The translations under genes were made by a program, and so were the position numbers. Under the pieces are notes generated by a model. It worked only from the letters and a program-made list of their open reading frames with translations, had not been told where the DNA came from and did not search any database. Shown here piece after piece: positions 22,604-64,000 of a stretch of 64,000 nt of DNA (positions are counted from its first letter, which is position 1; every line of letters begins with the position of its first letter). This DNA is from a virus (Duplodnaviria > Heunggongvirae > Uroviricota > Caudoviricetes), in IMG/VR virus record IMGVR_UViG_3300020045_008999, positions 128,001 through 192,000 of that record, one strand, 5' to 3'.

Positions 22604-22629
22604 GGCATAACGTAGTTTCTCTATATATA

Positions 22630-29728: not shown

Positions 29729-29739
29729 ATAGTATATAT

Positions 29740-29922: not shown

Positions 29923-29958
29923 TTTTTAGTAAAAAGGTATCGCCAATACAATTAGATG

Positions 29959-30816
29959 CTATAGTAAACCATCTTCAATTTCTAATATCAAATCAGTAAA
30001 ATTTTCTTCATTGAAAGTCAAATCATCATTCCAAATCATAAAGGGTCTCTGGTATTTTAAAATCAATTTAATGTGTCTAATATTATCATTAAATAATTGC
30101 GGTAAATTATTAGAATGGCATTTTATTACGCCATTCACTTCAATATCATAATCGCCAGCATAGGTAGAATTTAAATTTTTATTATTATCATAATAAAAAC
30201 CTTTACCCACCTCACTAGGGGATCCTTCTAGGGTAGTCAATTGATTATGACTACAGTTATAACTACCTAGAATTGTCTGCGGCGATCCCTCTAGTGATGT
30301 TAATTCATTCCCAGTACAATAAAAATCACCACTCACCTCACTAGGTGATCCGTCTAACGAAGTCAGATTATTATTAGAACAATATAAACCATCCCCAATG
30401 GTAACCGGCAATCCCTCTAGTGAAGTTAAGTGATTATTGGAGCAATAAAGACTTCCACCCACCTCAGTAGGTGATCCATTTAGCGAAGTTAATTTATTAT
30501 ACCTACAATATAAATCACCGCCCACTGTATGTGGACCGCCCACTAATGAGGTTAGATTATTGTCTCTACAGTAAAAATTACCATAAACTATACGAGGCGA
30601 TCCACTCAATGAAGTTAATTTATTATCAGAACAATAGAAATCACCACTCACTTTATTAAATTTTATTGGAAATTCCACTAAATCAACATTGACTATTCTA
30701 ACATAACCATCTACATCAATAGACGCATCCGGATTAATGGAATAGTTTTCAATTTTATATTGCTTACATATTAAATCGATCTGGTCCTTTTCTTCTTTAC
30801 TAATTAAATTCTTCAT
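29959..30816 (-). CDS. LRR-like array paralog, 285 aa, ~7 modules
   Basis: Family N-cap, 21-aa repeats, tail. Confidence 0.85.
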   Translation of the reverse strand: MKNLISKEEKDQIDLICKQYKIENYSINPDASIDVDGYVRIVNVDLVEFPIKFNKVSGDFYCSDNKLTSLSGSPRIVYGNFYCRDNNLTSLVGGPHTVGGDLYCRYNKLTSLNGSPTEVGGSLYCSNNHLTSLEGLPVTIGDGLYCSNNNLTSLDGSPSEVSGDFYCTGNELTSLEGSPQTILGSYNCSHNQLTTLEGSPSEVGKGFYYDNNKNLNSTYAGDYDIEVNGVIKCHSNNLPQLFNDNIRHIKLILKYQRPFMIWNDDLTFNEENFTDLILEIEDGLL

Positions 30817-39858: not shown

Positions 39859-39869
39859 ATGTTATATAT

Positions 39870-40125
39870 AAAAATCTAATAACTCAAAGGGGACCAGCGA
39901 ACCGATAGGTGAGCTGCATATTAAACTAAACTTTAACGTTTTTTAACATTATAAATTTGCATATTAATTTAACTTTTATTAACTTTGTGTTGGCACTTTA
40001 CACTCAAGTACTACACTATAAAGTGCCAACATAAAGATACAATATTATTTTCATATACACAAGAATTTTAACAACGTTGTTAACATTTATATTTCAGCAC
40101 TATGTCCTCGCTTCGCTCGGACTAA
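39870..40125. repeat. copy C of the intergenic hairpin/convergent-promoter module
   Basis: Hairpin 39895-39916; TTTG-N20-TAACTTTG; 18-bp IR at 39983-40000 and 40019-40036; opposite promoter 40032-40063; minus-strand hairpin 40104-40122. Confidence 0.8.
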
Positions 40126-43079: not shown

Positions 43080-43089
43080 AAGCTATATA

Positions 43090-43348
43090 TAAAAATTAGA
43101 TCCATCAAAGCGGCCAGCGAACCGATAGGTGAGCTGCATATTATATTAAACTTTAACAGTTTTAATTTGTAAATGTTAGATATATTCATTAACTTTGTGT
43201 TGGTACCTTACACTCAAGTACTACACTATAAAGTGCCAATATAAAGATACAAAATATAGTAATACAAAGCAAGTCTTTAATGTAAAAGTTATGAACGATG
43301 TTAACGAAGTGTCTTATCAACGATGTTATAAACAATCGCTCACTCAGA
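43090..43348. repeat. copy D of the intergenic hairpin/convergent-promoter module
   Basis: Hairpin 43115-43136; promoters 43166-43197 (+) and 43242-43273 (-); IR between them; truncated right hairpin. Confidence 0.8.
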
Positions 43349-43350
43349 CA

Positions 43351-48465: not shown

Positions 48466-49206
48466 CTATTTATTTAATTGTTTAGTGTATTTTTTCTTTA
48501 TCATTTGTTTTGTTAGCTTTTCCTTATCACCATCTTCAACAATTCTAATTATTATACTATCGATACCAACGTCCTTGATCATCTTATCTAAGGTAACAGA
48601 ATGACCAGATTTTAAATTGTTTAGTAAGCCATCATTTTTACTAGTATATACTATAAATTTTTTATTTACCTGATTGGTTATGACAACAGAATAACGCTTG
48701 CTTTGTGTGAATAAATGAGATGGATATAGGTATAACTTTTCATGCAATTGTTTTAATGACTTATATCCCAAAACATCTTTCATAATATTGATCGACTTAT
48801 GTACTTCGGTATCCTCTGCTCCTTTGATAAATAGATTGTATCTTTCGTTGGGATTATTATTATCGTTAAATTCAATATTGGTTAGATCCTGGACCATAGA
48901 ATATTCTCTTATAAGCCTTTCTTCATCAGCGCGATCAGATGACAACATTTTGACAATTAGTCGACTACCAGAGTCCAGAATTCCCTTTATTAGTTTATTC
49001 TTTCTTACATTTATATTAGTTGCCTTTTGTAGATCTAATATGTGGAATGCAATCCTCCCCTTTATATTACTAGTTGATCCAATATAAAAATCATTTATCA
49101 TATACACCCCAGATGTATACGTATCTTCAATATCCGCAAACCATTTTATGTTATCAGAAACATAATTTATCAATAGTTTTTTCTTATCAACCTCAGTTTT
49201 TGTCAT
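48466..49206 (-). CDS. GIY-YIG nuclease / homing endonuclease-like protein
   Basis: SGVYMI-NDFYIGSTSNIKGRIAFH motif with downstream E and N. Confidence 0.7.
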   Translation of the reverse strand: MTKTEVDKKKLLINYVSDNIKWFADIEDTYTSGVYMINDFYIGSTSNIKGRIAFHILDLQKATNINVRKNKLIKGILDSGSRLIVKMLSSDRADEERLIREYSMVQDLTNIEFNDNNNPNERYNLFIKGAEDTEVHKSINIMKDVLGYKSLKQLHEKLYLYPSHLFTQSKRYSVVITNQVNKKFIVYTSKNDGLLNNLKSGHSVTLDKMIKDVGIDSIIIRIVEDGDKEKLTKQMIKKKYTKQLNK

Positions 49207-49304
49207 TTGTATATAAATTAATCAATTATATACAAATGATATGTGAAAGTTTAGTGATGTGTAAAATAAATAATCAAATAAATACTAGTGAATATTTAAC
49301 ATAT

Positions 49305-49485
49305 TAAATTTGTATAAGAACTTTAAATTTCTTAACTTTGTGTTGGCACCTTATACTCTACTACTAGACTATAGTGTGCCAACATAAAGATACTAATTAA
49401 TACAATACAAAACAAGACTCATAGACAAAAGTTATCAACAATCGTTCACTGCGTTTATAAATACGTTAGCGACACCACTCTGATA
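49305..49485. repeat. copy E of the intergenic module (left hairpin missing)
   Basis: Promoters 49309-49340 (+) and 49385-49416 (-); IR tgttggca..tgccaaca. Confidence 0.75.
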
Positions 49486-50088
49486 CTATTCTAATCCGTC
49501 TTCAATTTCTGCTATCAAATTCTGGAAGTTTTCCTCATTTAAAGTTAAGTCATCATTCCAGATGAAGAAATGTCTTTGGTACTTCAAGATCAATTTAATG
49601 TGATGTACATTATTCTTCAATTGCTGTGGTAGGATGTTTAAGCTACATGTTACAATTCCGGATACGTCAATATCCGTATCACCTGAGTAAGTAGAAGTTA
49701 ATTTATTATTACTACAATATAAATTACTACCAACCGATTGTGGTGCCCCCACTAATGAAGTTAAACCATTGTACCCACATCTGAAATTCCCACCAACAGA
49801 TGTAGGTGATCCTTCCAATGACGTCAACATATTAATACTACAATAAAAATCATCACCAACTGTATGAGGGGATCCCTCTAAGGTAGTTAATATGTTCATT
49901 GAACAAGAAAATTTACCGGTCACATTACCAAATCGCAATGGTAATTGTTTTAAGCGTTTATGTTCTAAATCAACATCTCCCTCAACGTCAATGGATCCAT
50001 CAGCATTAATAGTGTAATGCCTAATATGAGATCTTCTACAAATCGAATCAATACGGTTCTTTTCCTCTATACTAATTAAGTTTTTCAT
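49486..50088 (-). CDS. LRR-like array paralog, 200 aa, ~3 modules
   Basis: Family N-cap, 21-aa repeats, tail. Confidence 0.85.
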   Translation of the reverse strand: MKNLISIEEKNRIDSICRRSHIRHYTINADGSIDVEGDVDLEHKRLKQLPLRFGNVTGKFSCSMNILTTLEGSPHTVGDDFYCSINMLTSLEGSPTSVGGNFRCGYNGLTSLVGAPQSVGSNLYCSNNKLTSTYSGDTDIDVSGIVTCSLNILPQQLKNNVHHIKLILKYQRHFFIWNDDLTLNEENFQNLIAEIEDGLE

Positions 50089-50211
50089 AAGCTATATATA
50101 CTATTATTATTTTTTCAATTTTTACCAAAACAGCGAATGGAAATATAATATATACTATGTAGGAATGATGAAGTTTATTAAATATTCTAGATTAACAACT
50201 CTATCACGCTC

Positions 50212-50445
50212 AGTAGATTATCGGATACCAGCTTTTATCCCAGGGATAATGATCCAGCTGCCCATATAAAGATCGAAAAGTGATAGAACAATCGAAAATG
50301 TTAAATATACCAAACCCAAGACTACACATCGAATAGATACAACAGTGTTATACCTATCGAAGAATATATGTTAATTCATAGTAGATTATCGGAAACCAGC
50401 TTTTATCCCAGGGATAATGATCCAGCTGCCCATATAAAGATCGAA
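50212..50445. repeat. 66-bp direct repeat x2 (50212-50277 and 50380-50445) containing palindrome TTATCCC-A-GGGATAA
   Basis: One mismatch between copies; 102-bp spacer. Confidence 0.9.
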
Positions 50446-50741
50446 CCGCAATTAATTATTCAAGATAATATACCATTCAAATATCAACGGATGTCATAAT
50501 ACAAATTAAAACATATTTAAATACCCAACCTGGTGAAATGTCAAAAAAAATGACATACATACCGGGAATTACCAGTTAGAACAATCCTAATGATTTAAAT
50601 ATGAATATAATTGAGCTATTTAAATACAGTGGATTTAAGCCACTTAAATTTTAAAATGGTGTCCTAGTATTAAAAAAATATAATAAAGCCTTATATTAGG
50701 CAACATTGAAGGGATTTAATGAATTTACTTATATAAGACAG

Positions 50742-50842
50742 CAGCGAACGAAGTGAGCTGTATAATTATACAAAATTTTAACAACGTTGTTATCAACAAT
50801 CGCTCACTACGTTTATAACTACATTAGCGACCACCATCTAGA
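50742..50842. repeat. collapsed copy G of the intergenic module (outer hairpin motifs only)
   Basis: cagcgaacgaagtgagctg at 50742-50760, then aacaacgttgttatcaacaatcgctcac. Confidence 0.65.
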
Positions 50843-50844
50843 TA

Positions 50845-51585
50845 TTATTCTAATCCTTCTTCAATTTCGGATATCAAATCCTTGAAGTTTTCTTCATTCA
50901 ATGTCAGATCATCATTCCATATAAAGAAATATCTCTGGTACTTAAAGATCATTCTGAAATCAACCATGTGTTCACCATCACCGTCTTTACCAAATTGTAC
51001 CGGCATGTACTTTGTGTCATAATATAAAGTGCCCTTTAATTCAATATCATCAGCACAATACGTGGATGATATTGAATTACCTTCACAATGATAACCACCT
51101 CCAATCATAGTAGGTGATCCTATTAAGTTACTTAGTTGGTTATCGGCACAACAAAAATTTCCATTAACACTATTTGGACCACCTTCCAATGAAGTTAAAA
51201 TGTTCCTATGACAATAAAAATCCACATTAATGATATCCGGTGATCCCTTTAACGAAGTTAATTGGTTATAAGAACAAAAGAAACTATTTCGGACTAACTT
51301 AGGGCCCCAGTCTAAATTAACCAAGTTATTAGACTGTCCGTAAAATGTCCCACCAACCTCATGCGGACATCCTTTCAATGAAGTTAACTGATTTCCATTG
51401 CAATAAAAATCACCAGATACTTTATTAAAGCTCAATGGTAAATCAGTTAATTCCTTTTTGGTTAAATTAACATCACCATCAACGTCAATAGTCCCATCTG
51501 AGTTTATCGAGTAATTAAATATATTATATTTCTTACAAATTGAATCAATACGATCCTTTTCCTCTTTAGATATTAAATTCTTCAC
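50845..51585 (-). CDS. LRR-like array paralog, 246 aa, ~5 modules (GTG start)
   Basis: Family N-cap, 21-aa repeats, tail. Confidence 0.85.
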   Translation of the reverse strand: MKNLISKEEKDRIDSICKKYNIFNYSINSDGTIDVDGDVNLTKKELTDLPLSFNKVSGDFYCNGNQLTSLKGCPHEVGGTFYGQSNNLVNLDWGPKLVRNSFFCSYNQLTSLKGSPDIINVDFYCHRNILTSLEGGPNSVNGNFCCADNQLSNLIGSPTMIGGGYHCEGNSISSTYCADDIELKGTLYYDTKYMPVQFGKDGDGEHMVDFRMIFKYQRYFFIWNDDLTLNEENFKDLISEIEEGLE

Positions 51586-51611
51586 ATGTTTATCTTTATT
51601 TCAATTATATA

Positions 51612-51885
51612 TAAAATTCAGATCCCTCAAAGCGGCCAGCGAACGCAGTGAGCTGCATATTAACATAGGTAAATTTTAACGTAGATTTTAACAGTTTTAA
51701 TTTGTATATGTCCTCAACTTTTACTACCTTTATGTTGGCACACTATAGTGTAGTACCAGAGTATAAGGTGCCAATATAAAGATACAAAATATAGTAATAC
51801 AAGTCAAGTGTTTTCTGTAAAAGTTATCAACGATGTTATCAACGATGTTATAAACAATCGCTCACTGCGTTCGCGGCACCATCTA
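51612..51885. repeat. copy F of the intergenic module (complete; core inverted relative to C, D, E)
   Basis: Hairpins 51637-51655 (+) and 51859-51875 (-); promoters 51701-51732 and 51777-51808; core 51741-51768. Confidence 0.8.
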
Positions 51886-51909
51886 AATCCCCATTAGATC
51901 TATTCGAAT

Positions 51910-52596
51910 TTAATTTAATGGAATTTTCAACCAGGTCATGTTATTATACATTTCCAATTCACCGGATCCACCAGTGTACTCATTTACTAAATGATGAAGT
52001 GCCTTGGAATTGATCTGGATACGCATATAGACAGTATTGAACTCTGTGAAAGTTTCTTTGGTTGATGCCCACACAAATCCCTTAACGAATTCCTCCAGGT
52101 AAATAGTTGGAATTCTAGGTACTTCTAACTCATATTTATTCACCTGGAATCCATAATCCATCAAAGACCAAACCAAATGGAATGAAGTGATCAAACAAGT
52201 TCGGATATTCACATCCCGGACACCCTTCTTAATGACATATCCAGAATTGATAGCAGCACTTATATCACTCATAATAGGATCCGTAGTTTTCAAATGCAAA
52301 TTATATAACTTAGTAGTTATTTTAATATGACCACATGCCCATATCGATCCAAGGTAATAGGCCCGGGTAGAATCCATCTTATCAATTCGAAAGTATTCGG
52401 AATCCAAGCTTATAGTGCGGGAATCAGAAACAGTCTTACACTGAATCGAACAGTATTTTCTAGGCCTGGTCAATTCAAATCTATTGTCATATTTAAATGA
52501 CTTTTTACAATTGGAACAGATGCAATCCACCCATAATAATTCTTTATTTTTGACCGGGCGGCCTGGGCGTTTCTTATTACTCATAGTTGAATTCAT
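51910..52596 (-). CDS. degenerate LAGLIDADG-like protein with N-terminal AT-hook-like motif and Zn ribbon
   Basis: KKRPGRP; CSNCKK..RKYCSIQC; AYYLGSIWACG; second motif FVKGFVWAS lacks acidic residues. Confidence 0.55.
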   Translation of the reverse strand: MNSTMSNKKRPGRPVKNKELLWVDCICSNCKKSFKYDNRFELTRPRKYCSIQCKTVSDSRTISLDSEYFRIDKMDSTRAYYLGSIWACGHIKITTKLYNLHLKTTDPIMSDISAAINSGYVIKKGVRDVNIRTCLITSFHLVWSLMDYGFQVNKYELEVPRIPTIYLEEFVKGFVWASTKETFTEFNTVYMRIQINSKALHHLVNEYTGGSGELEMYNNMTWLKIPLN

Positions 52597-53003
52597 AGTT
52601 AATTTAATATGTTTAGTGATATTAAATTAATTTTTAGGGTTGTCTAAAAATTAATTTAGTTAAGTATAAATAATTTGTTTTTGAATCTAAACTTTTTAAT
52701 AGGTCAAATCCTACTTAGTTTAAGACTCTAATATTATTTCCATATTATCCCATATTATTATACATCACCTATCTATATATTCCGAAAACAAAACACATAA
52801 TTAATATACTCACTTTTCATGTACATTATCACACATATCTATACATTTCGACATATTTAAATGATTTGATTTATTTAATAAAACACATAATTAATTGCTC
52901 ACTGCGTTCGCAACCCCATAGAATTGTATTTAAATCATCTTTCAGGTTGTTTTCAGGTTGATTTCATGTATGTATTATCTTTCATCTTTTATATCATTAA
53001 ATA

Positions 53004-53034
53004 GTTGTTATATTAAAAAGATTATATACCTTTG
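53004..53034 (+). promoter_or_regulatory. Bacteroidota-type promoter (GTTG-N19-TACCTTTG)
   Basis: Heads the + strand gene run starting at 53088. Confidence 0.6.
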
Positions 53035-53087
53035 GGATCTAAAAACAAACCATAGAAGATTGTCAGCGTTGAATATAATATGAAAAT

Positions 53088-53630
53088 ATGAAAATACCAT
53101 TATTAATAAAAGCATTTACTAGTCCATTTGTTCGTCCTATGATAATTTTTTATTTTGGAAAAACTGCCATAGGGACTCCTTACTTCTTTCCCCGCAATTG
53201 GGTAAAATATACCAAGCAAGACTGTATCGACCAAGCTACTAAATCTATGGGAAATTCTAATACAAATAGAACTTTTGATCAGTGGATTGATCATTATAAA
53301 AATTATTCCAAGGCAGTTCCAAAGCGGATAGGTTTTGATTTTGTGGATCTTGGGTGGAAGACGAAGTGGAGTAATACGGATTTTAGGCATGAGTTCAATC
53401 CACGTTTGAGTTTTGTATTTTTCGGATATCAAATAGCTGTAACCTTTGTACCATTGGATGATTGTCACTATTGGGAATGTTTTTTATATTATAATTTCGC
53501 TACAGATAAGACAAAGAGTCGTCAAGAGAGAATTATCCAAAGTAGAAATGAGTTTCCATGTGTTTGGACTAGACATAGTGATAATGGTAAAGAGACTATA
53601 AATTATTGGGATAAAATATTAAAAAAATAA
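53088..53630 (+). CDS. hypothetical protein, 180 aa
   Basis: Long ORF after promoter. Confidence 0.75.
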   Translation: MKIPLLIKAFTSPFVRPMIIFYFGKTAIGTPYFFPRNWVKYTKQDCIDQATKSMGNSNTNRTFDQWIDHYKNYSKAVPKRIGFDFVDLGWKTKWSNTDFRHEFNPRLSFVFFGYQIAVTFVPLDDCHYWECFLYYNFATDKTKSRQERIIQSRNEFPCVWTRHSDNGKETINYWDKILKK

Positions 53631-53745
53631 AAATAAAAATACCATTTAATTTTATAATTATGAAACTAAAAGATTTAAAAGGCCCCGATAGTATATTCAC
53701 ATATAAGGGTGAGAGTACTAGTATTTACGATAAGACTTTTTAGTT

Positions 53746-54111
53746 ATGGAATTTATGGATGACTTATTTGATTTTACGGATGAACCGTTGGTACCTATTG
53801 TGATGTCTAAGGATGCATTTGTGACTAAGACTAGGAAGTTATTATCTCATATTGATACTCTTTATGGTCAGGGTTGGCAGACTCGGGCATTGATTGAATC
53901 GGAATATCCGGATCAAAGTGTTTGTGATTTGTGTAAGGGTTGTGGCACATTTACTTTGGATGGTGTGGATGGTGTTGCCGCGGATTGTGTTGTAGATTAC
54001 GAAGATGGTCAGTGTGTGACTAGGTATTTTGATTCGGAAGAATTTGTGTTGAGTATAGAGGAATGTTTGGATGATCTTTACGAACTGCTGTTGGTTGACA
54101 CTATTAATTAA
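53746..54111 (+). CDS. hypothetical acidic Cys-containing protein, 121 aa
   Basis: ORF with CDLCKGC motif. Confidence 0.65.
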   Translation: MEFMDDLFDFTDEPLVPIVMSKDAFVTKTRKLLSHIDTLYGQGWQTRALIESEYPDQSVCDLCKGCGTFTLDGVDGVAADCVVDYEDGQCVTRYFDSEEFVLSIEECLDDLYELLLVDTIN

Positions 54112-54121
54112 ATAAAAGTAT

Positions 54122-54325
54122 TTGAATATGGGACAACTGACAAGATTGATTGAATTATCATCGGATGACAACCAAGTGGTTGTGGGTAGATCTTATACGT
54201 GTATGGATTGTGATTGGTGTGGATTGGTATCGGAATGTGATTTTGATACTGAGTATGATGAATTCAAGGACATAGATAGAAGGTATCCAATATGTCCGGA
54301 GTGCGGTGGTGGATTAGAATGTTGA
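54122..54325 (+). CDS. small Zn-ribbon protein
   Basis: CMDC...CPEC pairs. Confidence 0.6.
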   Translation: MNMGQLTRLIELSSDDNQVVVGRSYTCMDCDWCGLVSECDFDTEYDEFKDIDRRYPICPECGGGLEC

Positions 54326-54352
54326 TCTTGATAATAAATAACTAAATATAAT

Positions 54353-54568
54353 ATGGAAAATACTAAGACTGCTGCTATACGTAGTTTAACTGATGATGAA
54401 TTATTGAGTAATGCTTTGCGGTTTGCTTTTGACAAATGTCCTGATGAAAGTGGGGCTTTGGTTGATTTTCAGAAATACAAGAGTACCTTTTACGGGTGTA
54501 TGAAATGGATGCGTGATAACTATGAGCCGACCTGTGATGGGTTTCTGGGCGAGGTTGAATCGAAATAA
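54353..54568 (+). CDS. hypothetical protein, 71 aa
   Basis: ORF in co-oriented run. Confidence 0.6.
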   Translation: MENTKTAAIRSLTDDELLSNALRFAFDKCPDESGALVDFQKYKSTFYGCMKWMRDNYEPTCDGFLGEVESK

Positions 54569-54921
54569 ATTATAAATTAGACTAGATTATGAAAAACACA
54601 AACCTACCATTGGATTCTTGTACTAAGGATTTCAAATACACTTTAAGGAGTAAAGAGGGTAAAATCATATTACAAGAAATCGTAACATTTGGTTCCATAG
54701 AAGCCGTTTCCGAAAAATTGGAAAGGTAACCCAATGATACTTATGGCGATTTCTGATTACAAGCACAATATGATATCAAATAATTTTGATATCTTGGTTG
54801 ATGAAAATTTAGAGTTTGACATATAATAGGTGCCTCCGACACATTTCGGATAATCCGCAAGCTTTTGCCTAGGGTAATTATACACTTATATAGGGTTGTG
54901 GGTGTTTAACTAAAGTATAAA

Positions 54922-55188
54922 ATGAAAAAAGAATTAGAGGAAATTGCTGAAAAAGTACAAAAATTAGTTGATTATGAAGTTTCTAAAATTGAAAGAAAGG
55001 AAACTAAATGGAAAAATCAATATGAAAGTGTGATGAGTGAATTAGAAAGTGAATTGAAATATACTAATGAACTTATTGTGGACTCAAACGAAAATGGGTT
55101 AACTATTAGTTCGGTTGAGGCAGAGGGTTACAAGAGATGTTTAATCACGATGATAAATCGATTTCGCGATTTTGAAAAATACGAGTAA
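54922..55188 (+). CDS. hypothetical coiled-coil-like protein, 88 aa
   Basis: E/K-rich helical ORF. Confidence 0.65.
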   Translation: MKKELEEIAEKVQKLVDYEVSKIERKETKWKNQYESVMSELESELKYTNELIVDSNENGLTISSVEAEGYKRCLITMINRFRDFEKYE

Positions 55189-55204
55189 CTAATAGCGAAT
55201 CATT

Positions 55205-55393
55205 ATGAGAAATAAAATAACCAGAAAGGATAAGAAGAAGTTACGTGCTATAATGTTGTGTCATACTGGTAATGTGACGTGTCGTAAATCAACCTATAGT
55301 AAGGAAGAATGGTTAAAGATAAAAATCATGTATAGGGTTTGGCTGTCTTGTTTCACTATGGATGACAGAAGAATGGCCAATACCGTACGATGA
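55205..55393 (+). CDS. hypothetical protein, 62 aa
   Basis: ORF in co-oriented run. Confidence 0.5.
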   Translation: MRNKITRKDKKKLRAIMLCHTGNVTCRKSTYSKEEWLKIKIMYRVWLSCFTMDDRRMANTVR

Positions 55394-55726
55394 ATTACTT
55401 AATGAATTACAAATTATGAATTAACCCAACTATTGTATAGATAAAAATAGCAGTAGTTACAATACAGATTTTATTATGAAAGCACTATGCTTAATTATTT
55501 GGATGCTTATTTCGATGTTATTCGTATGTAGTATAATAGGACTAGTAATGTTTATACCCAAGGATAGCTGGCAGAATTACTCAAATACCCCATCTACTTG
55601 GTATTCGTTTGGTGAAAGGTTATTGGCGAGTGTTGTTGAATAAATACGAAATAAATACATATTATGAGTCCATCAAAAAATAAGGATTTGATCCGGGTTT
55701 TCTATTGAGGACATACTGTTTTAGAT

Positions 55727-55906
55727 ATGAGAGAGACATTTGAAGATTACACGAAACGATTACAAGAACGAAGAACCGAGGATGGGTATAGGTATACTGA
55801 CGAAGATTTCGAAAGGCACAAAGAGTACATTAAGATTTGTTATGAAACGGATTTAAGTGTTTATAAGTGTTTGGAATTTATGTGGTTCCAAGAGTATTCT
55901 AAATAG
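55727..55906 (+). CDS. hypothetical protein, 59 aa (not in ORF track)
   Basis: Manual translation MRETFEDYTKRLQERR...LEFMWFQEYSK. Confidence 0.55.
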   Translation: MRETFEDYTKRLQERRTEDGYRYTDEDFERHKEYIKICYETDLSVYKCLEFMWFQEYSK

Positions 55907-55934
55907 GGCTTTTCACTATAAAAAACCAAATAAT

Positions 55935-56228
55935 ATGCAAATTAAAGAGGAATTGATTGCTCGTATTAAATTAGAATTGGCTGAGGTATGCCAGTCTTAT
56001 GACCAAGATAATGTCAGTAGTTTTATGCGATGGATGAGAGTGGAATATGTCAATTACATGTTACTTTCCAGAGATGCTGCGATGGAAACCTTAGGGCGAC
56101 TAAGAGTAGTGTATGCGGGTTACATCCCGTTGATAGAAGTATTGGAACGCAACATCAATGGGTATGCGTCGCTTCAATGTTTTTATAGGGTTTCGTTGGA
56201 CTATATATCGGAACAAGAACAAGTATAA
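55935..56228 (+). CDS. hypothetical protein, ~97 aa
   Basis: Start moved to MQIKEE to avoid overlap with the preceding ORF. Confidence 0.6.
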   Translation: MQIKEELIARIKLELAEVCQSYDQDNVSSFMRWMRVEYVNYMLLSRDAAMETLGRLRVVYAGYIPLIEVLERNINGYASLQCFYRVSLDYISEQEQV

Positions 56229-56244
56229 CAAGTAAAAAACAAAT

Positions 56245-56715
56245 ATGGCATATCAAATTACAAATGAAAATGAAATAGTTTTCACCAATTCAAGACAAGA
56301 CCCAATCCGCAATATATGGAACAATCTTACTACTGTAAAGGGGCATTTAATCTATCGATTGAAGCGTGACCTAGACAAAGGGACACATTCAGTAGATGAA
56401 CAAGAGCAAATTAAAAAGAGAATAGTCGAAGTTAATAAAATGACCAAAAAGAGCATAATGCAAGCCTATGACATAAAACGCAAGCCCATGACATTGCTCG
56501 AAAAATTTGAGAAAATTGAGGTTAATCATGAAAATTATCTGGACGGTTTAGTAGGCGTAGCAGATAAGTTTGCTATTGATTTTGCGGATTGGGTTGAGAA
56601 GCTATCACCATCGCAGCGAACGTCTGTTTGGTCTAAGAATGGTGAGTATAGTGGATTATTCACCATGGATAATGAGCAACTTTTAGAGAAATACAAAAGG
56701 GAAAAGGGATTATAG
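56245..56715 (+). CDS. hypothetical protein, 156 aa
   Basis: Long ORF in co-oriented run. Confidence 0.7.
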   Translation: MAYQITNENEIVFTNSRQDPIRNIWNNLTTVKGHLIYRLKRDLDKGTHSVDEQEQIKKRIVEVNKMTKKSIMQAYDIKRKPMTLLEKFEKIEVNHENYLDGLVGVADKFAIDFADWVEKLSPSQRTSVWSKNGEYSGLFTMDNEQLLEKYKREKGL

Positions 56716-56747
56716 CCCGGGTTAATTTAACAATAAACCGATTTAAT

Positions 56748-56996
56748 ATGAAAGTAATAGTAAAATACCAGGTTATAGATTCAAATAACTTAACCTACGG
56801 AATGTTTAAGTTGGGTGGGGAAATGATCGCAAACCCTCGAATAACGGACCAACAGGTACCTTTGGGTGGTGTTGCTTCGAATATTGGATGGTTAAGGCAA
56901 GATGTTCATAGGTGTACTGGTGATATAATGGAATTTCATCCAGAATATGATTCTATTGAATATGAATTAGTAGAAATGGATTACGACAGATGGTAA
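56748..56996 (+). CDS. hypothetical protein, 82 aa
   Basis: ORF in co-oriented run. Confidence 0.6.
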   Translation: MKVIVKYQVIDSNNLTYGMFKLGGEMIANPRITDQQVPLGGVASNIGWLRQDVHRCTGDIMEFHPEYDSIEYELVEMDYDRW

Positions 56997-56997
56997 T

Positions 56998-57219
56998 ATG
57001 GCTTTATTAGTAAAATATGAAGATTTATTAAATATTTCGGCTGAGTTTTATGATTTGTTTAATCCAGAAATAGATACAGCCGAACATTATAATCTTAGAA
57101 TAGAATTGGCCAAATACGTAGCACACGCTACATATTCACACGATGTGGCTCACAATGAATGTGGGTTAACTTTTGAAAACTGGGCTAAAAAATACAAAAT
57201 AGTTTCTGATAAAATTTAA
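56998..57219 (+). CDS. hypothetical protein, 73 aa
   Basis: Tightly coupled ORF. Confidence 0.6.
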   Translation: MALLVKYEDLLNISAEFYDLFNPEIDTAEHYNLRIELAKYVAHATYSHDVAHNECGLTFENWAKKYKIVSDKI

Positions 57220-57230
57220 AAGTAAAAACT

Positions 57231-57503
57231 ATGTTTAAAGTAAGTATTAAAAAAGCATTTATAATACACAATGTAAGCCGGTTTTGTAACAACGGATGGC
57301 GAAGATTTGATAGTATAAAAGAGGTAGAAAAGCAACATTCGTTTAATGCTTTGCCAAAAACTAATGAATACTACGATATTGTAGTAAGAGGTAAAATACA
57401 ATACCGTTATTATTATGGCGGATGTATTTCGTCAGATGGATGGGTTGAACAAAATGTAACTCATTTTAGATTATCATCCAGTTATAAGTTACCGAGGTGG
57501 TAA
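57231..57503 (+). CDS. hypothetical protein, 90 aa
   Basis: ORF whose stop codon overlaps the TAAC of the attC-like site. Confidence 0.6.
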   Translation: MFKVSIKKAFIIHNVSRFCNNGWRRFDSIKEVEKQHSFNALPKTNEYYDIVVRGKIQYRYYYGGCISSDGWVEQNVTHFRLSSSYKLPRW

Positions 57504-57633
57504 CGTCCGGTTACTATACGAGGTTGTTGCCGAATTAAAAACCGACCACACAAACACAAACTAATACTTAAAATTATGACTGGTATTTCAAAAAATTCCG
57601 AATTGCAACAATCTTGTATAACCGCTGTTATGC
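57498..57633 (+). mobile_element. attC-like recombination site
   Basis: TAAC..cggttactatacgaggttgttgc pairs with gcaacaatcttgtataaccg..GTTATGC, with bulged bases. Confidence 0.55.
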
Positions 57634-57854
57634 CTCGTTTTTTTGTCGATGAGCGAAATGGATGTATAGCAATTAGAGATAGAAATCATCCCGATTTTGA
57701 TATTGACCATCAAGGACTAGATGCAGATTTACCCGATGTGGTAGATTTTAAAATGGGTGAGCAAATTAAATTTTCAAATTTTGTAACTTGGGATTTAGCC
57801 CCTGAAATAATTTTAGATTTTAATTCTCGTTGTGCTTTGTTAAATGAGGCATAA
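57576..57854 (+). CDS. hypothetical protein in an integron-like cassette, 92 aa
   Basis: Bounded by GTTATGCctcgttt (57627) and aaatgagGCATAAC (57855). Confidence 0.6.
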   Translation: MTGISKNSELQQSCITAVMPRFFVDERNGCIAIRDRNHPDFDIDHQGLDADLPDVVDFKMGEQIKFSNFVTWDLAPEIILDFNSRCALLNEA

Positions 57855-57915
57855 CTTGCTCATAGCATTCCAGTGAACGATGCAAGTTCAAGTAATATCA
57901 AATAAAGACTGATCA

Positions 57916-58125
57916 ATGAACATAGAAACTATCTTTTGTGACAATTATTTCCCACCTACTTATATTTTCTGTTTGAAATGGAAAGATGGTAGTTATCAGA
58001 ATAGGACACAATATGTGTGTAATGAATCAAAGTCACCGTATGGTAAAGAATACGTTGGTGTATGGAATGTGACTTATAAGAAACTAAATCCTAATTATTA
58101 TTGTGATGGACAGCGTGATATATAA
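57916..58125 (+). CDS. hypothetical protein, 69 aa
   Basis: ORF in co-oriented run. Confidence 0.55.
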   Translation: MNIETIFCDNYFPPTYIFCLKWKDGSYQNRTQYVCNESKSPYGKEYVGVWNVTYKKLNPNYYCDGQRDI

Positions 58126-58325
58126 GAATCGTTTCAAATTTTGGTCTATACAAACCTTATTAAATAATTAATAATGAAACAAATGAGCAACTATTTCAGA
58201 CGACTATCTAACGTGTGGTTAGGGTCGACAATTTTAGGTAAAATATGCATTAGTATTATATTTCCAATTTGGTTACTTGCTGGATTTAATTCGGCATGGG
58301 ATGATTAACAGTTTTGTACTAATTA

Positions 58326-58357
58326 TTTGGTTATTGTACTGAAATGTATTACATTTG
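58326..58357 (+). promoter_or_regulatory. Bacteroidota-type promoter (TTTG-N20-TACATTTG)
   Basis: Full consensus match. Confidence 0.65.
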
Positions 58358-58488
58358 TCTGGTATACTGATTTTAAATACTATATTGAAATCATAAAGAC
58401 GCGATTAATTAACGTCCATCGCTACAATTTCGACTTGTGGTAAAAAGCAAGGTGTTTCGGATGAGAAACAGTAATTAAAAATGAATTT

Positions 58489-58719
58489 ATGGCAAATATC
58501 TATGATTTACACGACCATCCTTGCGTTAAAATTGAAAACATAATCCATATTACAATTTCGGCAACTAAAACAATGTGTGGTAAAGAGTGGATTTATTCGC
58601 CAACCATCGAAAGATTTAAAAGAACAAAAGTAAAAACATTAAAGTGGGTAAGTCCGGATAAAATTAATTGTCAAAAATGTATTGATGCTTATGGAAATGA
58701 AAAAGCAGTTGATTTTTAG
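58489..58719 (+). CDS. hypothetical protein, 76 aa (possible Zn-binding)
   Basis: H..CG..CQKC pattern. Confidence 0.6.
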   Translation: MANIYDLHDHPCVKIENIIHITISATKTMCGKEWIYSPTIERFKRTKVKTLKWVSPDKINCQKCIDAYGNEKAVDF

Positions 58720-58802
58720 AAAAAAAGCAGTTGATTTTTAAAACGATGGTTGTGACAATATCGCCTAACTATCTTATGTTAGTGGTATTAAAAAAATAAA
58801 TT

Positions 58803-59633
58803 ATGAAAATATATCCAGTTGAAATACAAATTGGTCAGAGAGTTATTAAAAGTAATAGCTTTCAATCTTTTAGAGTTATTGACAAAATAAAAGAAACACC
58901 AAAAACAATAACATTTCTCGTAAAATATTATAAAGGTGATATACGTTGTCATGGTGATTTTATTGAAAAAGAAGTAACATTTAGAAAATCTACAATAGTT
59001 GAAAGTAGAGAAGATTTTATCGGGACTAAATTTAACCAATTATATAAAATAAAACCCGAAAGACTAAAAGATGTTATTAACCGAGGATTTGAATTGTATA
59101 GAGTAAAGGCAAAACAAACATATAGTTGGGGTGATGATGGTTTGAGAATTGGTGATTATATGTTTGCAATGTTTAATGGTATCAACTATGAGACCGAAAG
59201 TATATTAGATGATGGTACCGTTAATGTAATACCACCATCAAAAAATTCAGACAAACCTAAATTATCTGGTTGGAGTAATAATAATGGCGGATTCGAGGAT
59301 TTTTATGAAAAGATAGATATGAATATTATTTTAAACACTAATGAACCGTGTCCCACAACGGTGGGAAGCGATAGTGACAAGGATGTTAAATTCACTCTTA
59401 ATACTAAAGAGGTTAGAAAATATTTAGAAAGTAAAGGATTTAAAGGCCTTACTTTTTTCCAAGGTGGTAAGTTTATTTATGCGTTTATATCTATAAGAGC
59501 AAACGTAAATCACCAATGGAAAGAGAAAGATTATTCCACCTTTAATGAGAATGATAAAAATAGACTGTCTTTCTTAAATCAAAGCGATTGTAGTTATGAT
59601 GAATTCAAATACTATATTGAAAACCTAAACTAG
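58803..59633 (+). CDS. hypothetical protein, 276 aa
   Basis: Long ORF. Confidence 0.75.
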   Translation: MKIYPVEIQIGQRVIKSNSFQSFRVIDKIKETPKTITFLVKYYKGDIRCHGDFIEKEVTFRKSTIVESREDFIGTKFNQLYKIKPERLKDVINRGFELYRVKAKQTYSWGDDGLRIGDYMFAMFNGINYETESILDDGTVNVIPPSKNSDKPKLSGWSNNNGGFEDFYEKIDMNIILNTNEPCPTTVGSDSDKDVKFTLNTKEVRKYLESKGFKGLTFFQGGKFIYAFISIRANVNHQWKEKDYSTFNENDKNRLSFLNQSDCSYDEFKYYIENLN

Positions 59634-59680
59634 GGATTCCTTAATTATACTATGTTAGTGGTATTTTAAAAAAATAAATT

Positions 59681-59956
59681 ATGCTGAATAAATTTAAAAT
59701 TGAAATAATCGATAATCAAGTTGGCAATTTTTTCCAAATCAATCTATATAAGTGGAAGAAAGTTAATAAGTGGTTTCAAATAGCGAAATTTGACTGGTGT
59801 ATTGAGTTTAGACACATTTTGGGTAAAAATTATAGGTGTCCAGAGATTTCACAAAAACGAATAACCATTGAACAGTATTTCGAAAGAGAGGTCCAAGACG
59901 AATTAAATCGCGATGGCATAGAAGAAGTACATAGAATTATAATTGCTGCATCATAA
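59681..59956 (+). CDS. hypothetical protein, 91 aa
   Basis: ORF sharing its upstream sequence with the 58803 gene. Confidence 0.6.
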   Translation: MLNKFKIEIIDNQVGNFFQINLYKWKKVNKWFQIAKFDWCIEFRHILGKNYRCPEISQKRITIEQYFEREVQDELNRDGIEEVHRIIIAAS

Positions 59957-60095
59957 TGAGGCAGGTTTTTTAAATATACACTTAAATACAACACTAAATA
60001 CAAAGAGAGATTGGGTAAACCGGTCTCTCTTTTTCCGTTACTGATCATTTTCGATTCAATTTTGGGATTTTCCCCTATATAAAAACGGTTATTTG

Positions 60096-60127
60096 TTTGG
60101 TAATTTGGTTCAAATACACTACATTTG
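60096..60127 (+). promoter_or_regulatory. Bacteroidota-type promoter (TTTG-N20-TACATTTG)
   Basis: Full consensus match. Confidence 0.65.
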
Positions 60128-60149
60128 TTTTATACTAAAAACCTCTATT

Positions 60150-60518
60150 ATGGAAACGTTAGCATTTTTTAAGAAGTATTGTAAGTTAAAGGGACTTGAA
60201 ACCAAGTATGCATTTGGACATATCCATGGTGAGACTAAGAGTTTGGTTTTTATGAATGGCGAAACTACGGAACATTTGGAATACTTGGGAACCAATGTAC
60301 GGGATGGTATTTTGTATCGGGTATCACCGGCTACTTGTGGCTATGGTGAGGACGGGAGTAACAAGTGTACTATAGGCAAACCTAACCCGGCCTGTATGGG
60401 TGGTATTTATTCCAAAAATAAATGTGCTATTTATTTTCATACTCCGATTGATTTGGAAACGTTTCGATATGATTTGAATATGGAGGAGTTTCAATTACTG
60501 AGTCTCAACCATGAGTAG
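60150..60518 (+). CDS. hypothetical protein, ~122 aa
   Basis: Start moved to METLAFF, downstream of the promoter. Confidence 0.65.
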   Translation: METLAFFKKYCKLKGLETKYAFGHIHGETKSLVFMNGETTEHLEYLGTNVRDGILYRVSPATCGYGEDGSNKCTIGKPNPACMGGIYSKNKCAIYFHTPIDLETFRYDLNMEEFQLLSLNHE

Positions 60519-60603
60519 GAAGTAGTCGAAGAATTGTAGAAAATGGGGTATATTATCAAAATCGGAAGCGCATTGAATCAATTTACCGAATATTTGTTTA
60601 ATC

Positions 60604-61002
60604 ATGGACGTAGGGGAAATATATAATTTTTGCATCAAACACCATATTAGTAATTACACCATTAATTCAGATGGGTTTATAGATGTGATCGGGTCAGTTA
60701 TTTTAGGTACAGAAGATGGAATAGAAGATGGGCACCTACCAGATGGAATTCGTTTTGGGTATGTTAGTGAGAGTTTCAACTGTACGTGGGCTTCCCTGAC
60801 CTCACTTAATGGATGTCCTTTGGTGTTGGGTGGTATTTTTTGTTGTTACTATGGATTTATGGATTGGACGGATGAGAACTTTGATGTTCTGTATCGTTAT
60901 AACTATTCCCAGCTGAGAATTAATAGTAATTTCAAGTTGGGATATGATAGGTATTGTAAAATAAGGAAGCGTAGGGATATTATTAATGAATTGCTCCGGT
61001 GA
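60604..61002 (+). CDS. divergent short LRR-like family member with basic C-terminal tail
   Basis: ISNYTINSDGFIDV..RFGYVSESFNC..LTSLNGCP. Confidence 0.75.
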   Translation: MDVGEIYNFCIKHHISNYTINSDGFIDVIGSVILGTEDGIEDGHLPDGIRFGYVSESFNCTWASLTSLNGCPLVLGGIFCCYYGFMDWTDENFDVLYRYNYSQLRINSNFKLGYDRYCKIRKRRDIINELLR

Positions 61003-61006
61003 TATA

Positions 61007-61038
61007 TTTGGAAAAATCGAATAAAATTATTACATTTG
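61007..61038 (+). promoter_or_regulatory. Bacteroidota-type promoter (TTTG-N20-TACATTTG)
   Basis: Full consensus match. Confidence 0.65.
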
Positions 61039-61063
61039 AATACTAATCGTAAATTAAATACAA

Positions 61064-61312
61064 ATGAAAACAGAAACTTCGAAAAATAATGATGCAAATC
61101 CGGATCGCTCAATGGATTCAGATCAAGCATTTATTGACATTAACTACACATTTAATGCAATTGCAAATCAAGACAAGAGTAATAGTTGGAAACTGGATGA
61201 ACTTAGACTAATACTAAATCAGTTACAGAAGACTCAATTTGAAAACGGCATAAAAGCTGGATTTAGAAAAGGGATTAAACTACTTACGGACCAGGACATA
61301 AACAACCTTTAA
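61064..61312 (+). CDS. hypothetical protein, 82 aa
   Basis: ORF after promoter. Confidence 0.6.
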   Translation: MKTETSKNNDANPDRSMDSDQAFIDINYTFNAIANQDKSNSWKLDELRLILNQLQKTQFENGIKAGFRKGIKLLTDQDINNL

Positions 61313-61481
61313 ATAAAAGTAATATGGATATGAAAAATTTCATCACTGAGAAAATGAATTCTGGTGGATTGACCGTAGCAATATCCGGACATAAACAACC
61401 TTTAAACAAAAGTAATATGGATATGAAAAATTTCATCACTGAGAAAATGAATTCTGGTGGATTGACCGTAGCAATATCCGG
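61294..61481. repeat. 93-bp tandem duplication
   Basis: Duplicates the gene junction and MDMKNFITEKMNSGGLTVAISG. Confidence 0.9.
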
Positions 61482-61950
61482 TCAGGTGGCTGCCTTATGC
61501 GATGAATATAGACTAATGAAATCATCGGATCACTGCAGTATTATCACTGGTGAATTTGGCCGTTTGGGAAGTTTAAACATTAAAGAACTTAGTGCTGATT
61601 GCCAAGAGCTTGTATTCAAATATGAGAGTGGATCATATGACTATGTATCGACCAGAACCAATTCATCTACAAATATACTCTGGACTGATTATCAAGACAT
61701 CGAACCTTACAACCGCCAGGGTGGGTTGTACGCAGACGGGGCCTCATTTAAAAGTTTGGGTGCGCCAGTTTTAGAAAAATCGGATTGCCGAGAATTTCAC
61801 GCTACGCATGTTTACCAGGGCAATATAAGTTTTGCGGTTTGGGGGTTTCGTTTTAATGATTTTTACAATTCCATAAATTTTGGCATTTGCATAAAAACGG
61901 ATCAGGTGGGTGTATTCATTACTCGTCTAAGACTTATTATAGGAAAGTAA
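61324..61950 (+). CDS. hypothetical protein with duplicated N-terminus (alternative start 61417)
   Basis: Long ORF. Confidence 0.7.
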   Translation: MDMKNFITEKMNSGGLTVAISGHKQPLNKSNMDMKNFITEKMNSGGLTVAISGQVAALCDEYRLMKSSDHCSIITGEFGRLGSLNIKELSADCQELVFKYESGSYDYVSTRTNSSTNILWTDYQDIEPYNRQGGLYADGASFKSLGAPVLEKSDCREFHATHVYQGNISFAVWGFRFNDFYNSINFGICIKTDQVGVFITRLRLIIGK

Positions 61951-61973
61951 ATAATTCTTTAAAACCGGTAAAT

Positions 61974-62216
61974 ATGAGTTTATTAATGTATGCGAACAAC
62001 ATGGCCTTTTGGATATTAAAGTATCGAAAAGAGTTGACCACATTTGAGGAATTCAAATCGAGGTCTAAATTTACACTTACCAGTCAATGGAATGCTGCTA
62101 TGTTCACTACTATGGTTAATGATGGAATCAATGATGATTTGACTTCTATTGCTCAATGGGTGCAAAATAGTTTGGATAAGGATGGTCATGATGAATCGTA
62201 TTACATAAACGACTAA
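61974..62216 (+). CDS. hypothetical protein, ~80 aa
   Basis: Start moved to MSLLMY to avoid overlap. Confidence 0.55.
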   Translation: MSLLMYANNMAFWILKYRKELTTFEEFKSRSKFTLTSQWNAAMFTTMVNDGINDDLTSIAQWVQNSLDKDGHDESYYIND

Positions 62217-62229
62217 AAAATAAATACCA

Positions 62230-62616
62230 ATGTATAATGATTTGGTTATTGATTTTCTTGATAATAATGAGATCTCAAATTACGTGATTAATTTGGATGG
62301 CACTATCGATGTACATGGTAGGGTTATGTTATATTCTTATAGTGGTATTGAATTACCCTCTTATATACAATTCGGCAAAGTATTAGGAAATTTTTCATGT
62401 TCGTGTCTTAATATAACATCTTTGGTTGGGTTCCCACTACACATTGGTGGTTATTTGATGTGTTATTTCGGCAAGATAGCACCGAGTTATGAGAATTTTG
62501 AAATTTTACACCGGTATTCGGGTTGTTTGTATATTGAACCAGAATTAGATGTGTTGTACCAAAAATACTGTAGGATGAAAAAACGTATGGGTAGTATAGA
62601 TGAAATCATCTATTAA
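62230..62616 (+). CDS. divergent short LRR-like family member with basic C-terminal tail
   Basis: ISNYVINLDGTIDV..FGKVLGNFSC..ITSLVGFP. Confidence 0.75.
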   Translation: MYNDLVIDFLDNNEISNYVINLDGTIDVHGRVMLYSYSGIELPSYIQFGKVLGNFSCSCLNITSLVGFPLHIGGYLMCYFGKIAPSYENFEILHRYSGCLYIEPELDVLYQKYCRMKKRMGSIDEIIY

Positions 62617-62619
62617 CTA

Positions 62620-62651
62620 GTTGTAAATATGGGTTGAATATATTACATTTG
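62620..62651 (+). promoter_or_regulatory. Bacteroidota-type promoter (GTTG-N20-TACATTTG)
   Basis: Consensus match upstream of 62672. Confidence 0.6.
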
Positions 62652-62671
62652 AACCCCAGCTAAACATAAAT

Positions 62672-62992
62672 ATGGATCCAAACAAGAAAATGATTTACGA
62701 TAAGGTTTATGCCCATCTGAATGCGGATGAATCAACTGCTAGTAAATTAATTGCGAGACACTTTCGCTATGCGTTATTAGATAAGGCGATAACTGATCAA
62801 GAGTATGATTATTACTTTAAGTCGGGTGATGATATTGCCTTGGTAATGAATAATAGGCATGTGTTATGTTTGGGTGACGGAATTGATTCATGTGCGTATA
62901 ACACTACTATTGAGTGTGATGTATGTAAATACAACAACACAGCTTTCCCTGGAGCATTGGATCCGGGTGCTACTAAAAATCGTTATAAATAA
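62672..62992 (+). CDS. hypothetical protein, 106 aa
   Basis: ORF after promoter; Cys cluster. Confidence 0.65.
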   Translation: MDPNKKMIYDKVYAHLNADESTASKLIARHFRYALLDKAITDQEYDYYFKSGDDIALVMNNRHVLCLGDGIDSCAYNTTIECDVCKYNNTAFPGALDPGATKNRYK

Positions 62993-63053
62993 AACCATAA
63001 GATATATTCAGTCGAACCTTCTTTATCTGGAAATAATTGTAATTAAACGGTGA

Positions 63054-63794
63054 ATGATTATGTATAATAATGACCTAACAACGTGGGATGATCATAAATT
63101 GTTGAAGTTATATAAGCACGCCATGGTATATAGGTATATGTGCTATAAGGATACTTTTGGCAGCTACCACCCTAAATATGAGCACAACTGTGTTCATCTA
63201 GAAGACATAAAGAGCAGCTTTTTTTTCAAACTATACTATCCGAATGAATTGGCTATGTTAGAGCAAATGTGGACTCGTTACATGGATAGTAATTTTCATA
63301 ATAGATGTTGGTGGGAGTCACAGAATATATTCAGTACTCGAATTACATTCCCGCAACCGGCCCTGGATGATGTTGTTAGTGATGTTGTTAGCGATGTTGT
63401 TAGCGATGTTGTTAGCGATGTTGTTAGTGATAGTATAATCATGGATTATATTCACTATAATGGTAACCAGTATATTCTACATGGCAGTGGCAGCAAGCGT
63501 AAGGTTTACTTATCACCGGACGGTACCCATGTAATTAAGGTTGCTATGGATCCTATTGGTTTAGGCATTGGTGAGAATTTATCAGAGTCCCAAATCTATG
63601 CGAGTAACCCGGATTCCATTTACGCCAAATGCGAAATGATAGAGAATGATTGGCTGTTGATGGAATACGTAGAACCGGGATTTTTCACTTCAAAAGACAA
63701 TTTACCCCAATGGACTTTGAGTATTGCCGAACATCAGGTGGGTTACACCCTTTCCGGGAAGTTAGTGGCATATGATTACGGTTCCGATATTTAA
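63054..63794 (+). CDS. protein with (DVVS)5 linker and C-terminal minimal protein-kinase-like domain
   Basis: GSGSKRKVY, VIKVA, E, LLMEYV and DYG motifs in kinase order. Confidence 0.55.
   Translation: MIMYNNDLTTWDDHKLLKLYKHAMVYRYMCYKDTFGSYHPKYEHNCVHLEDIKSSFFFKLYYPNELAMLEQMWTRYMDSNFHNRCWWESQNIFSTRITFPQPALDDVVSDVVSDVVSDVVSDVVSDSIIMDYIHYNGNQYILHGSGSKRKVYLSPDGTHVIKVAMDPIGLGIGENLSESQIYASNPDSIYAKCEMIENDWLLMEYVEPGFFTSKDNLPQWTLSIAEHQVGYTLSGKLVAYDYGSDI
63369..63428. repeat. 5 x 12-bp tandem repeat (gatgttgttagy)
   Basis: Directly visible; encodes DVVS x5. Confidence 0.9.
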
Positions 63795-63804
63795 TACAAT
63801 TGAA

Positions 63805-64000
63805 ATGGATGATACTACATTAGACATAATTGATTATTTTCTAACTAATAGGTGTATTTGGAACTATGCCTACCCATACGAGGTTACTTCGGATGGTTTG
63901 ATTAATATCCAAGGTGATATTTTGATTACTTCGGTCCCGGATGGTCGCCATCAGATGTCTCATATTAGGTTTGGTAATGTGAGTGGTAATTTACGATGTC
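63805..64000 (+). CDS. divergent LRR-like family member, partial
   Basis: Manual translation ..YEVTSDGLINIQGDI..IRFGNVSGNLRC. Confidence 0.6.
   Translation, partial: MDDTTLDIIDYFLTNRCIWNYAYPYEVTSDGLINIQGDILITSVPDGRHQMSHIRFGNVSGNLRC

Follow-up and report, generated by a model that had tools for sequence, protein, structure and literature searches.

How did the centre of a repeated DNA palindrome come to lie in opposite orientations in different copies of one phage element, and does the inversion represent a genetic switch or an accident of copying? The question arises in a window of 64,000 nucleotides (the whole stretch of DNA analysed), which covers bases 128,001-192,000 of a single virus contig (596,785 bp, 32% G+C). 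This 597-kb huge phage genome encodes a major capsid protein of the T4 gp23 type. The original prediction was that the palindrome core inverts between its arms, either by a site-specific invertase acting in trans or by cruciform or template-switch events. Our results suggest the second. The inversion looks like one more example, now in a huge phage, of a mutational footprint that is already known, an ordinary copying accident at DNA hairpins rather than a genetic switch.

From about 22,000 to 52,600 the window contains a minus-strand array of paralogous LRR genes with 63-nt repeats. The gaps between most adjacent genes are only 10-12 nt, and the cassette occupies a few of the gaps (non-coding, 230-285 bp). 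The LRR gene to the left of copy F has a GTG start because its start region (51583-51588) reads ATGTGAAG; its paralogues translate as MKN, consistent with ATGAAG, and one contig of a riverine relative of the phage is missing one base at 51585. Searching the whole 597-kb genome with three copies of the cassette (blastn) recovered five full copies (B-F) and three partial ones, all inside the window, and no match outside it. None of the copies is terminal: they span 150.6-180.9 kb of the 596.8-kb contig, and copy F lies at 179.7 kb. The features are as follows, with flip denoting the core orientation of copies C, D and E and flop that of F.

22625-22700, plus strand: partial copy A, left end hairpin only.
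29735-29960, plus strand: copy B, with a degenerate palindrome (29843-29897) and a 21-nt core (29860-29880), probably flop like F.
39866-40125, plus strand: copy C; palindrome 39980-40039, core 39997-40022 (flip).
43085-43350, plus strand: copy D, whose flanks make it the sister of F; palindrome 43190-43249, core 43207-43232 (flip).
49255-49485, plus strand: copy E, without the left end hairpin; palindrome 49333-49392, core 49350-49375 (flip).
50725-50845, plus strand: internally deleted copy with left and right ends only, without promoters and without palindrome.
51605-51890, plus strand: copy F, full, with left end hairpin, putative facing promoters, central palindrome and right end hairpin.
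51725-51741, plus strand: left arm of F with its -7 box, TACCTTTATGTTGGCAC, with the bases of a right arm at each of the two positions by which left and right arms differ.
51742-51767, no strand assigned: core of F, 26 nt, inverted relative to C, D and E.
51768-51784, minus strand: right arm of F with its -7 box, reverse complement TATCTTTATATTGGCAC.
52887-52919, minus strand: remnant of a right end hairpin, GCGAACGCAGTGAGC on the minus strand.

The copy at 50725-50845 appears to be a recent internal deletion of promoters and palindrome, because a contig of the riverine relative runs from 50764 into an E-like palindrome (joint 50764>49324, with 39 other letters, including a TTTG box, before the palindrome). 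The right end hairpin (GCTCACTGCGTT followed by CGC in F) is split at that point in both E and the deleted copy by a common 13-nt insertion, TATAAATACGTTA / TATAACTACATTA (49452-49470 and 50807-50825).

The cassette is mirror-symmetric. A G+C-rich end hairpin is followed by TTG-N20-TAnnTTT(G/A), the arm TGTTGGCAC and the 26-nt core, after which the same elements recur in mirror order on the other strand. The TTG and TAnnTTT(G/A) motifs correspond to -33 and -7 boxes of the Bacteroidota type and face inward on both sides, with the -7 boxes lying in the arms. They probably act as promoters. The 20-nt spacing between the boxes is kept though the spacer sequence has diverged, and three of the six full-consensus matches to TTTG-N19-21-TAnnTTTG in the window are the rightward boxes of C, D and E. 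Three full-consensus Bacteroidota promoters (predicted; TTTG-N20-TACATTTG) occur on the plus strand at 58326-58357, 60096-60127 and 61007-61038, in a block of small plus-strand genes, and share the same -7 box, TACATTTG.

The palindrome (54-60 bp, imperfect) is the symmetry point of the cassette. It has arms of 14-17 bp with 2-4 mismatches and a centre of 26 nt (21 in B). In copy F, 51733-51776 consists of TGTTGGCAC, the core ACTATAGTGTAGTACCAGAGTATAAG (51742-51767) and GTGCCAATA. The inner arm TGTTGGCAC is perfect in C, E and F, and the inverted arms are far better conserved than their surroundings; such conservation of the inner arms shows that the palindrome is under some selection. Allowing one mismatch, the arm motif TTT[GA]TGTTGGCAC occurs in 597 kb only in these five hairpins and always as a facing pair, with no solitary copy and none outside a cassette. 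No palindrome similar to that of the cassette was found among the hairpins of window positions 52500-64000.

Every 26-nt core is self-complementary at 16-18 of its 26 positions, and is thus itself a quasi-palindrome, of which a flip alters only 8-10 bases. We identified no promoter, ORF or other clearly directional element in the core, the -33 and -7 boxes being placed in the arms or otherwise outside it. Arms and core fold as a single long imperfect hairpin whose poorly paired distal half is the core. For single-stranded DNA, the fold z-scores are -5 to -8 in C and E and -2.7 to -3.5 in F. The DNA stem is largely lost in D and B, in D down to three G.T pairs on the top strand; as RNA, D folds only as the plus strand and B only as the minus strand. 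Hairpin potential is retained in both orientations (DNA folds of C, E and F, with which the RNA folds agree). A flip puts a G-rich form of almost the same sequence where a C-rich one was, and symmetry, arms and boxes are left as they were.

Several other readings of the hairpin were considered and set aside. A strand-specific RNA hairpin maintained by G.U pairs is not indicated, as the strand pattern of D and B shows no consistent link to orientation. An intrinsic terminator lacks its U-run after the hairpin on either strand, and a sigma-54 (-24/-12) reading of TTGGCAC finds no TTGC at the right spacing (by eye). An Rfam microRNA match to the hairpin of copy C is sub-threshold (24.8 bits against a cut-off of 90).

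The orientation of the F core could be confirmed. Compared directly, it matches the C, D and E cores at 16, 16 and 17 of 26 positions; compared as the reverse complement, it matches at 20, 21 and 23. At informative sites, where the base of the reference core differs from that of its own reverse complement (only 8-10 positions per core), the inverted state is found in F at 6 of 8 sites against C, 7 of 10 against D and 7 of 8 against E. In simulations, random substitutions reached the margin seen in F with P = 8.5e-5 (C), P = 1e-5 (D) and in none of 200,000 trials (E). The flanks are colinear in all copies by alignment (blastn of F against D is plus/plus over 247 nt at 75%), and asymmetric repeats of the GTTATCAAC type lie on the right side of every copy. 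Thus, the F core is inverted relative to C, D and E within flanks of the same orientation, as had been proposed (P<1e-4 throughout).

The proposal went further and had three copies lying one way and two the other, of which the contrast between C, D, E and F stands and the placement of B is probable. With a 5-nt deletion and more divergence, the 21-nt core of B has an orientation that is not assignable by eye. In simulation it leans toward F (P of 0.0007-0.03 if oriented like E, 0.39-0.83 if oriented like F), and B probably shares the F orientation. All of these comparisons concern fixed differences among five paralogous copies in one genome.

Palindromes readily give rise to chimeric reads, and the genome was assembled from a metagenome, which raises the question of an assembly or sequencing artefact. 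We looked for related phages and found six runs that share 5-9% of sampled words and were kept as contigs. In the four runs compared as contigs, a relative is approximately 88-90% identical on the longest aligned piece and has several cassette copies. It is also about 88-90% identical over window positions 49000-53000 and comes from riverine and freshwater metagenomes of three studies. One of its contigs, of 65.9 kb, begins at the right end of cassette F, and its assemblies break at cassettes. Four contigs of the relative, from independent Logan assemblies of two riverine runs, cross the F core with F-type flanks, and the sole difference shown at full share is 51757 C>T. In addition, reverse-complementing any other copy gives a core that departs from F at 3-6 of 26 positions, so that the F core is no mis-join. 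An artefact is therefore scarcely credible; judging by the contigs, the F orientation exists in the riverine relative and the F core is not an assembly chimera.

Three contigs of the relative run from a left arm like that of E, C and D into CTGTAGTGTAG, the F-type orientation (loose ends at 49350). This suggests that core orientation may also differ between close relatives. The strand changed at none of the 15 listed joints, which were taken from contigs and say nothing about mixed populations. Beyond this relative, exact-pattern scans of IMG/VR with the palindrome, the left end hairpin and the relative-derived sequence gave no match, and three matches in a scan of JGI metagenome contigs were all unrelated chance hits. 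There was no match among GenBank phages (blastn), and no orthologous locus in IMG/VR was found via P0001, P0008 or the LRR alignment. Near-identical proteins occur on Logan, ENA and JGI contigs according to a protein cluster look-up; P0003 and P0001 had self-matches only in the protein collection.

The history of the cores does not follow that of their flanks. By flank identity, D and F are the closest pair (80% on the left, 88% on the right) and have opposite cores, and the left flank of B is closest to that of C (79%), to which its core is probably opposite. The C and D cores (39997-40022 and 43207-43232) are identical at 25 of 26 positions within flanks that are only 51-68% identical, which suggests that the palindrome has been gene-converted, or strongly homogenised, from copy to copy. 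Because core orientation is incongruent with flank kinship, there were probably at least two flips, or one flip plus hairpin conversion between copies; the orientation of B is only probable, and hairpin conversion could mimic recurrence. Thus, the palindrome seems to have a history separate from that of its flanks. An equally short history begins with an ancestral flop with symmetric arms, followed by one inversion and two arm substitutions in the lineage of the C, D and E hairpins.

Taken to its limit, the likeness of the C and D cores could mean that hairpins are exchanged or homogenised as separate units, by conversion or as a small inserted palindromic element, and that they land in either orientation with no inversion in situ. 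Palindromic arms would let a conversion tract pair either way. However, no copy in the genome yields the F core on reverse complementation (the 3-6 differences noted above), there is no precise empty site (the sole copy lacking the palindrome has a large internal deletion), and the arm motif has no solitary or extra-cassette copies. We consider this explanation distinctly unlikely.

The arms bear on the mechanism. Two positions separate left arms (TAACTTTG in C, D and E) from right arms (as the reverse complement, TATCTTTA; TACCTTTA in B). The left arm of F is TACCTTTA (TACCTTTATG versus TAACTTTGTG in C, D and E) and is of the right type at both informative sites, while its right arm is unchanged. 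The F-like contigs of the relative have T at 51727, and with it the left arm mirrors a right arm exactly. One-sided rewriting of an arm is predicted by a template switch and not by a reciprocal crossover. Over 68 nt, F differs from C, D and E at 15 positions. In a search of all single events, one asymmetric mirror-copy event reduces these differences to 9, 9 and 7, and the best symmetric inversion leaves 11, 10 and 9. With an arm signature of two positions and more free parameters in the asymmetric model, this fit may be said to slightly favour non-reciprocal copying.

The same numbers have to be set against a reciprocal, still unprogrammed, intramolecular recombination between the 14-17-bp arms, carried out by recombination-dependent replication machinery or by cruciform processing. 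The arms are near-perfect inverted repeats, and a symmetric inversion with breakpoints anywhere in them already cuts the 15 differences to 9-11. The phage has a T4-type capsid gene, and T4-type phages recombine heavily. Nevertheless, this route leaves the right-type bases at both outer informative positions of the left arm without a reciprocal change on the right, and the asymmetric model does better by 1-2 differences with each of the three ancestor proxies. Moreover, strand exchange is poorly served by perfect homology of 9-14 bp on either side of a 26-bp spacer, and no endonuclease VII homologue was found in the genome. Reciprocal recombination between the arms is, on balance, unlikely.

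We conclude that the F core was probably inverted spontaneously through its inverted repeats and then fixed, most likely by template switching during replication, rather than by a programmed switch. The nascent strand would cross between the two arms and copy the centre from the opposite strand, and the complement of core plus right arm, once copied, would take the place of left arm plus core. The flip would be tolerated because the core is itself quasi-palindromic, with 8-10 of 26 bases changed and hairpin potential, symmetry and both boxes kept; we assume that it was neutral. The cruciform and template-switch alternative of the original prediction fits the inverted core, colinear flanks and inverted arms, and template switching is favoured over reciprocal arm recombination, though not proven, by the arm sequences.

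The other alternative, a programmed inverton, would have a site-specific recombinase act in trans to flip the core, which would change how strongly the facing promoters fire and hence how far the neighbouring LRR gene is expressed. Several observations are in its favour: the conservation of the inverted arms above their surroundings, the location of the element, flanked by promoter-like boxes and next to genes of a large variable family, and the F-type cores that follow E/C/D-like left arms in three contigs of the relative, which suggest that orientation changes on a short evolutionary timescale. As predicted, profile searches (PF00239, PF00589) found no recombinase in the window. Elsewhere in the 597 kb, where a search for one had been proposed, there is no match to serine recombinases (PF00239), and tyrosine recombinases (PF00589) have a single match, a protein of 209 aa at genome positions 108,068-108,697 (L007:1569-2198, plus strand), 71 kb from F. 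This protein has the catalytic domain only, and an LPD29-like ORF lies upstream.

The presence of one tyrosine recombinase counts for an inverton, while its distance and the absence of a serine invertase count against. The core has no promoter or ORF to be switched, the boxes lie outside it or in the arms, and flipping a quasi-palindrome changes little. The arms are only 26 bp apart, and two recombinase sites in systems such as Hin/Gin, Fim and Cre/Flp need a far longer loop between them for synapsis. The arm motif is confined to these five hairpins, two of the five (D and B) have decayed stems, and the 597-kb contig was assembled straight through all five copies. A trans-acting site-specific invertase is accordingly disfavoured, and we regard an invertase switch as very unlikely.

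A related idea is a micro-switch that flips often, with no enzyme or by means of a phage or host recombinase, and swaps the initially transcribed sequences of the two facing promoters. To this we give a very slim chance. If true, each flip would alter how much the adjacent LRR gene is transcribed in sense relative to antisense transcription into the upstream neighbour, and individual members of the LRR repertoire would be expressed in a phase-variable manner within the phage population. If both orientations did occur at one locus, no smaller invertible regulatory element would be known.

Taken as a mutational footprint, the flip indicates that inversion of hairpin centres may operate in the regulatory cassettes of huge phages, and marks the cassette palindrome as a structure probably formed, or mis-copied, in vivo. 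Such sites will mislead alignments and inverton finders, which will take them for clustered substitutions or phase switches.

Comparison with known systems is consistent with this reading. Like the terminal flip/flop hairpins of parvoviruses and poxviruses, the palindrome is imperfect and occurs in two inverted-complement forms. Those hairpins lie at genome ends and arise in each round of replication by hairpin transfer or resolution, whereas all copies here are internal, with one orientation per locus, and this identity was rejected. Integron attC sites (R''/L''...L'/R', RYYYAAC...GTTRRRY) were also rejected, as the arms read GTTGGCA...TGCCAAC, the opposite polarity (by eye).

Invertons are recombinase-driven invertible promoters or segments that have been surveyed (PMC11892184, PMC11602134). 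Examples include the invertible promoters of Bacteroides, fimS and Hin/Gin/Cin. As in these, inverted repeats flank a segment with two orientations beside genes of a variable surface-type family. Unlike them, the segment is 26 bp without promoter or coding sequence, has no invertase nearby and has arms unique to the cassette, and each locus is known in one orientation, from assembly.

The surrounding cassette is most like the promoter-early stem-loop (PeSL) cassettes of T4-type phages, in which crossovers have been mapped inside the loop portion of the stem-loop (PMC2839356, PMC4122927). Both are repeated intergenic units with host-type promoter boxes and a stem-loop, found among non-essential variable genes and beside inserted genes of other families, and the mosaic similarity of the cassette copies suggests exchange between them. 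The two differ in that there is no sequence relationship, in that the cassette here is mirror-symmetric with two putative promoters facing across a palindrome, and in that its boxes are of the Bacteroidota type (TTG / TAnnTTTG) rather than the sigma-70 type. Two non-LRR genes, 48466-49206 and 51910-52596 (both minus strand), directly adjoin copies E and F. One is GIY-YIG-like (Pfam 22.2 bits, just below the cut-off of 22.6), and the other, an ORF of 228 aa, has CxxC pairs at its N-terminal end and no match in Pfam. Their positions are consistent with cassettes that mark junctions of insertion or exchange, as PeSLs do.

For the flip itself, the closest counterparts are hairpin-associated inversions. 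Minute inversions in hairpins of plastid non-coding DNA were reportedly described by Kelchner and Wendel in 1996, and template switching at quasi-palindromes is said to have been described first by Ripley, in phage T4 rII. All these cases, the present one included, share a short segment, enclosed by inverted repeats, that has turned into its own reverse complement between colinear flanks, without the need for an enzyme-specific site. In the known systems such flips recur, as they probably do among the copies here, and a flip may be accompanied by one-sided conversion of an arm. Template switching inverts hairpin loops, for example in rRNA and microRNA hairpins (PMC8794818), and has made short inversions flanked by inverted repeats in human and chimpanzee genomes (PMC5453318). 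The phage case differs in that the flipped segment is not a free loop but the distal half of a long hairpin, quasi-palindromic and imperfectly paired. It also lies at the symmetry centre of a repeated double-promoter cassette (the promoters being putative) in a huge phage, and was recognised among paralogous copies of one genome rather than among orthologues. With these differences, its sequence features place the flip among hairpin-associated minute inversions and template-switch loop inversions, to which it appears to belong as a further case, here in a huge phage.
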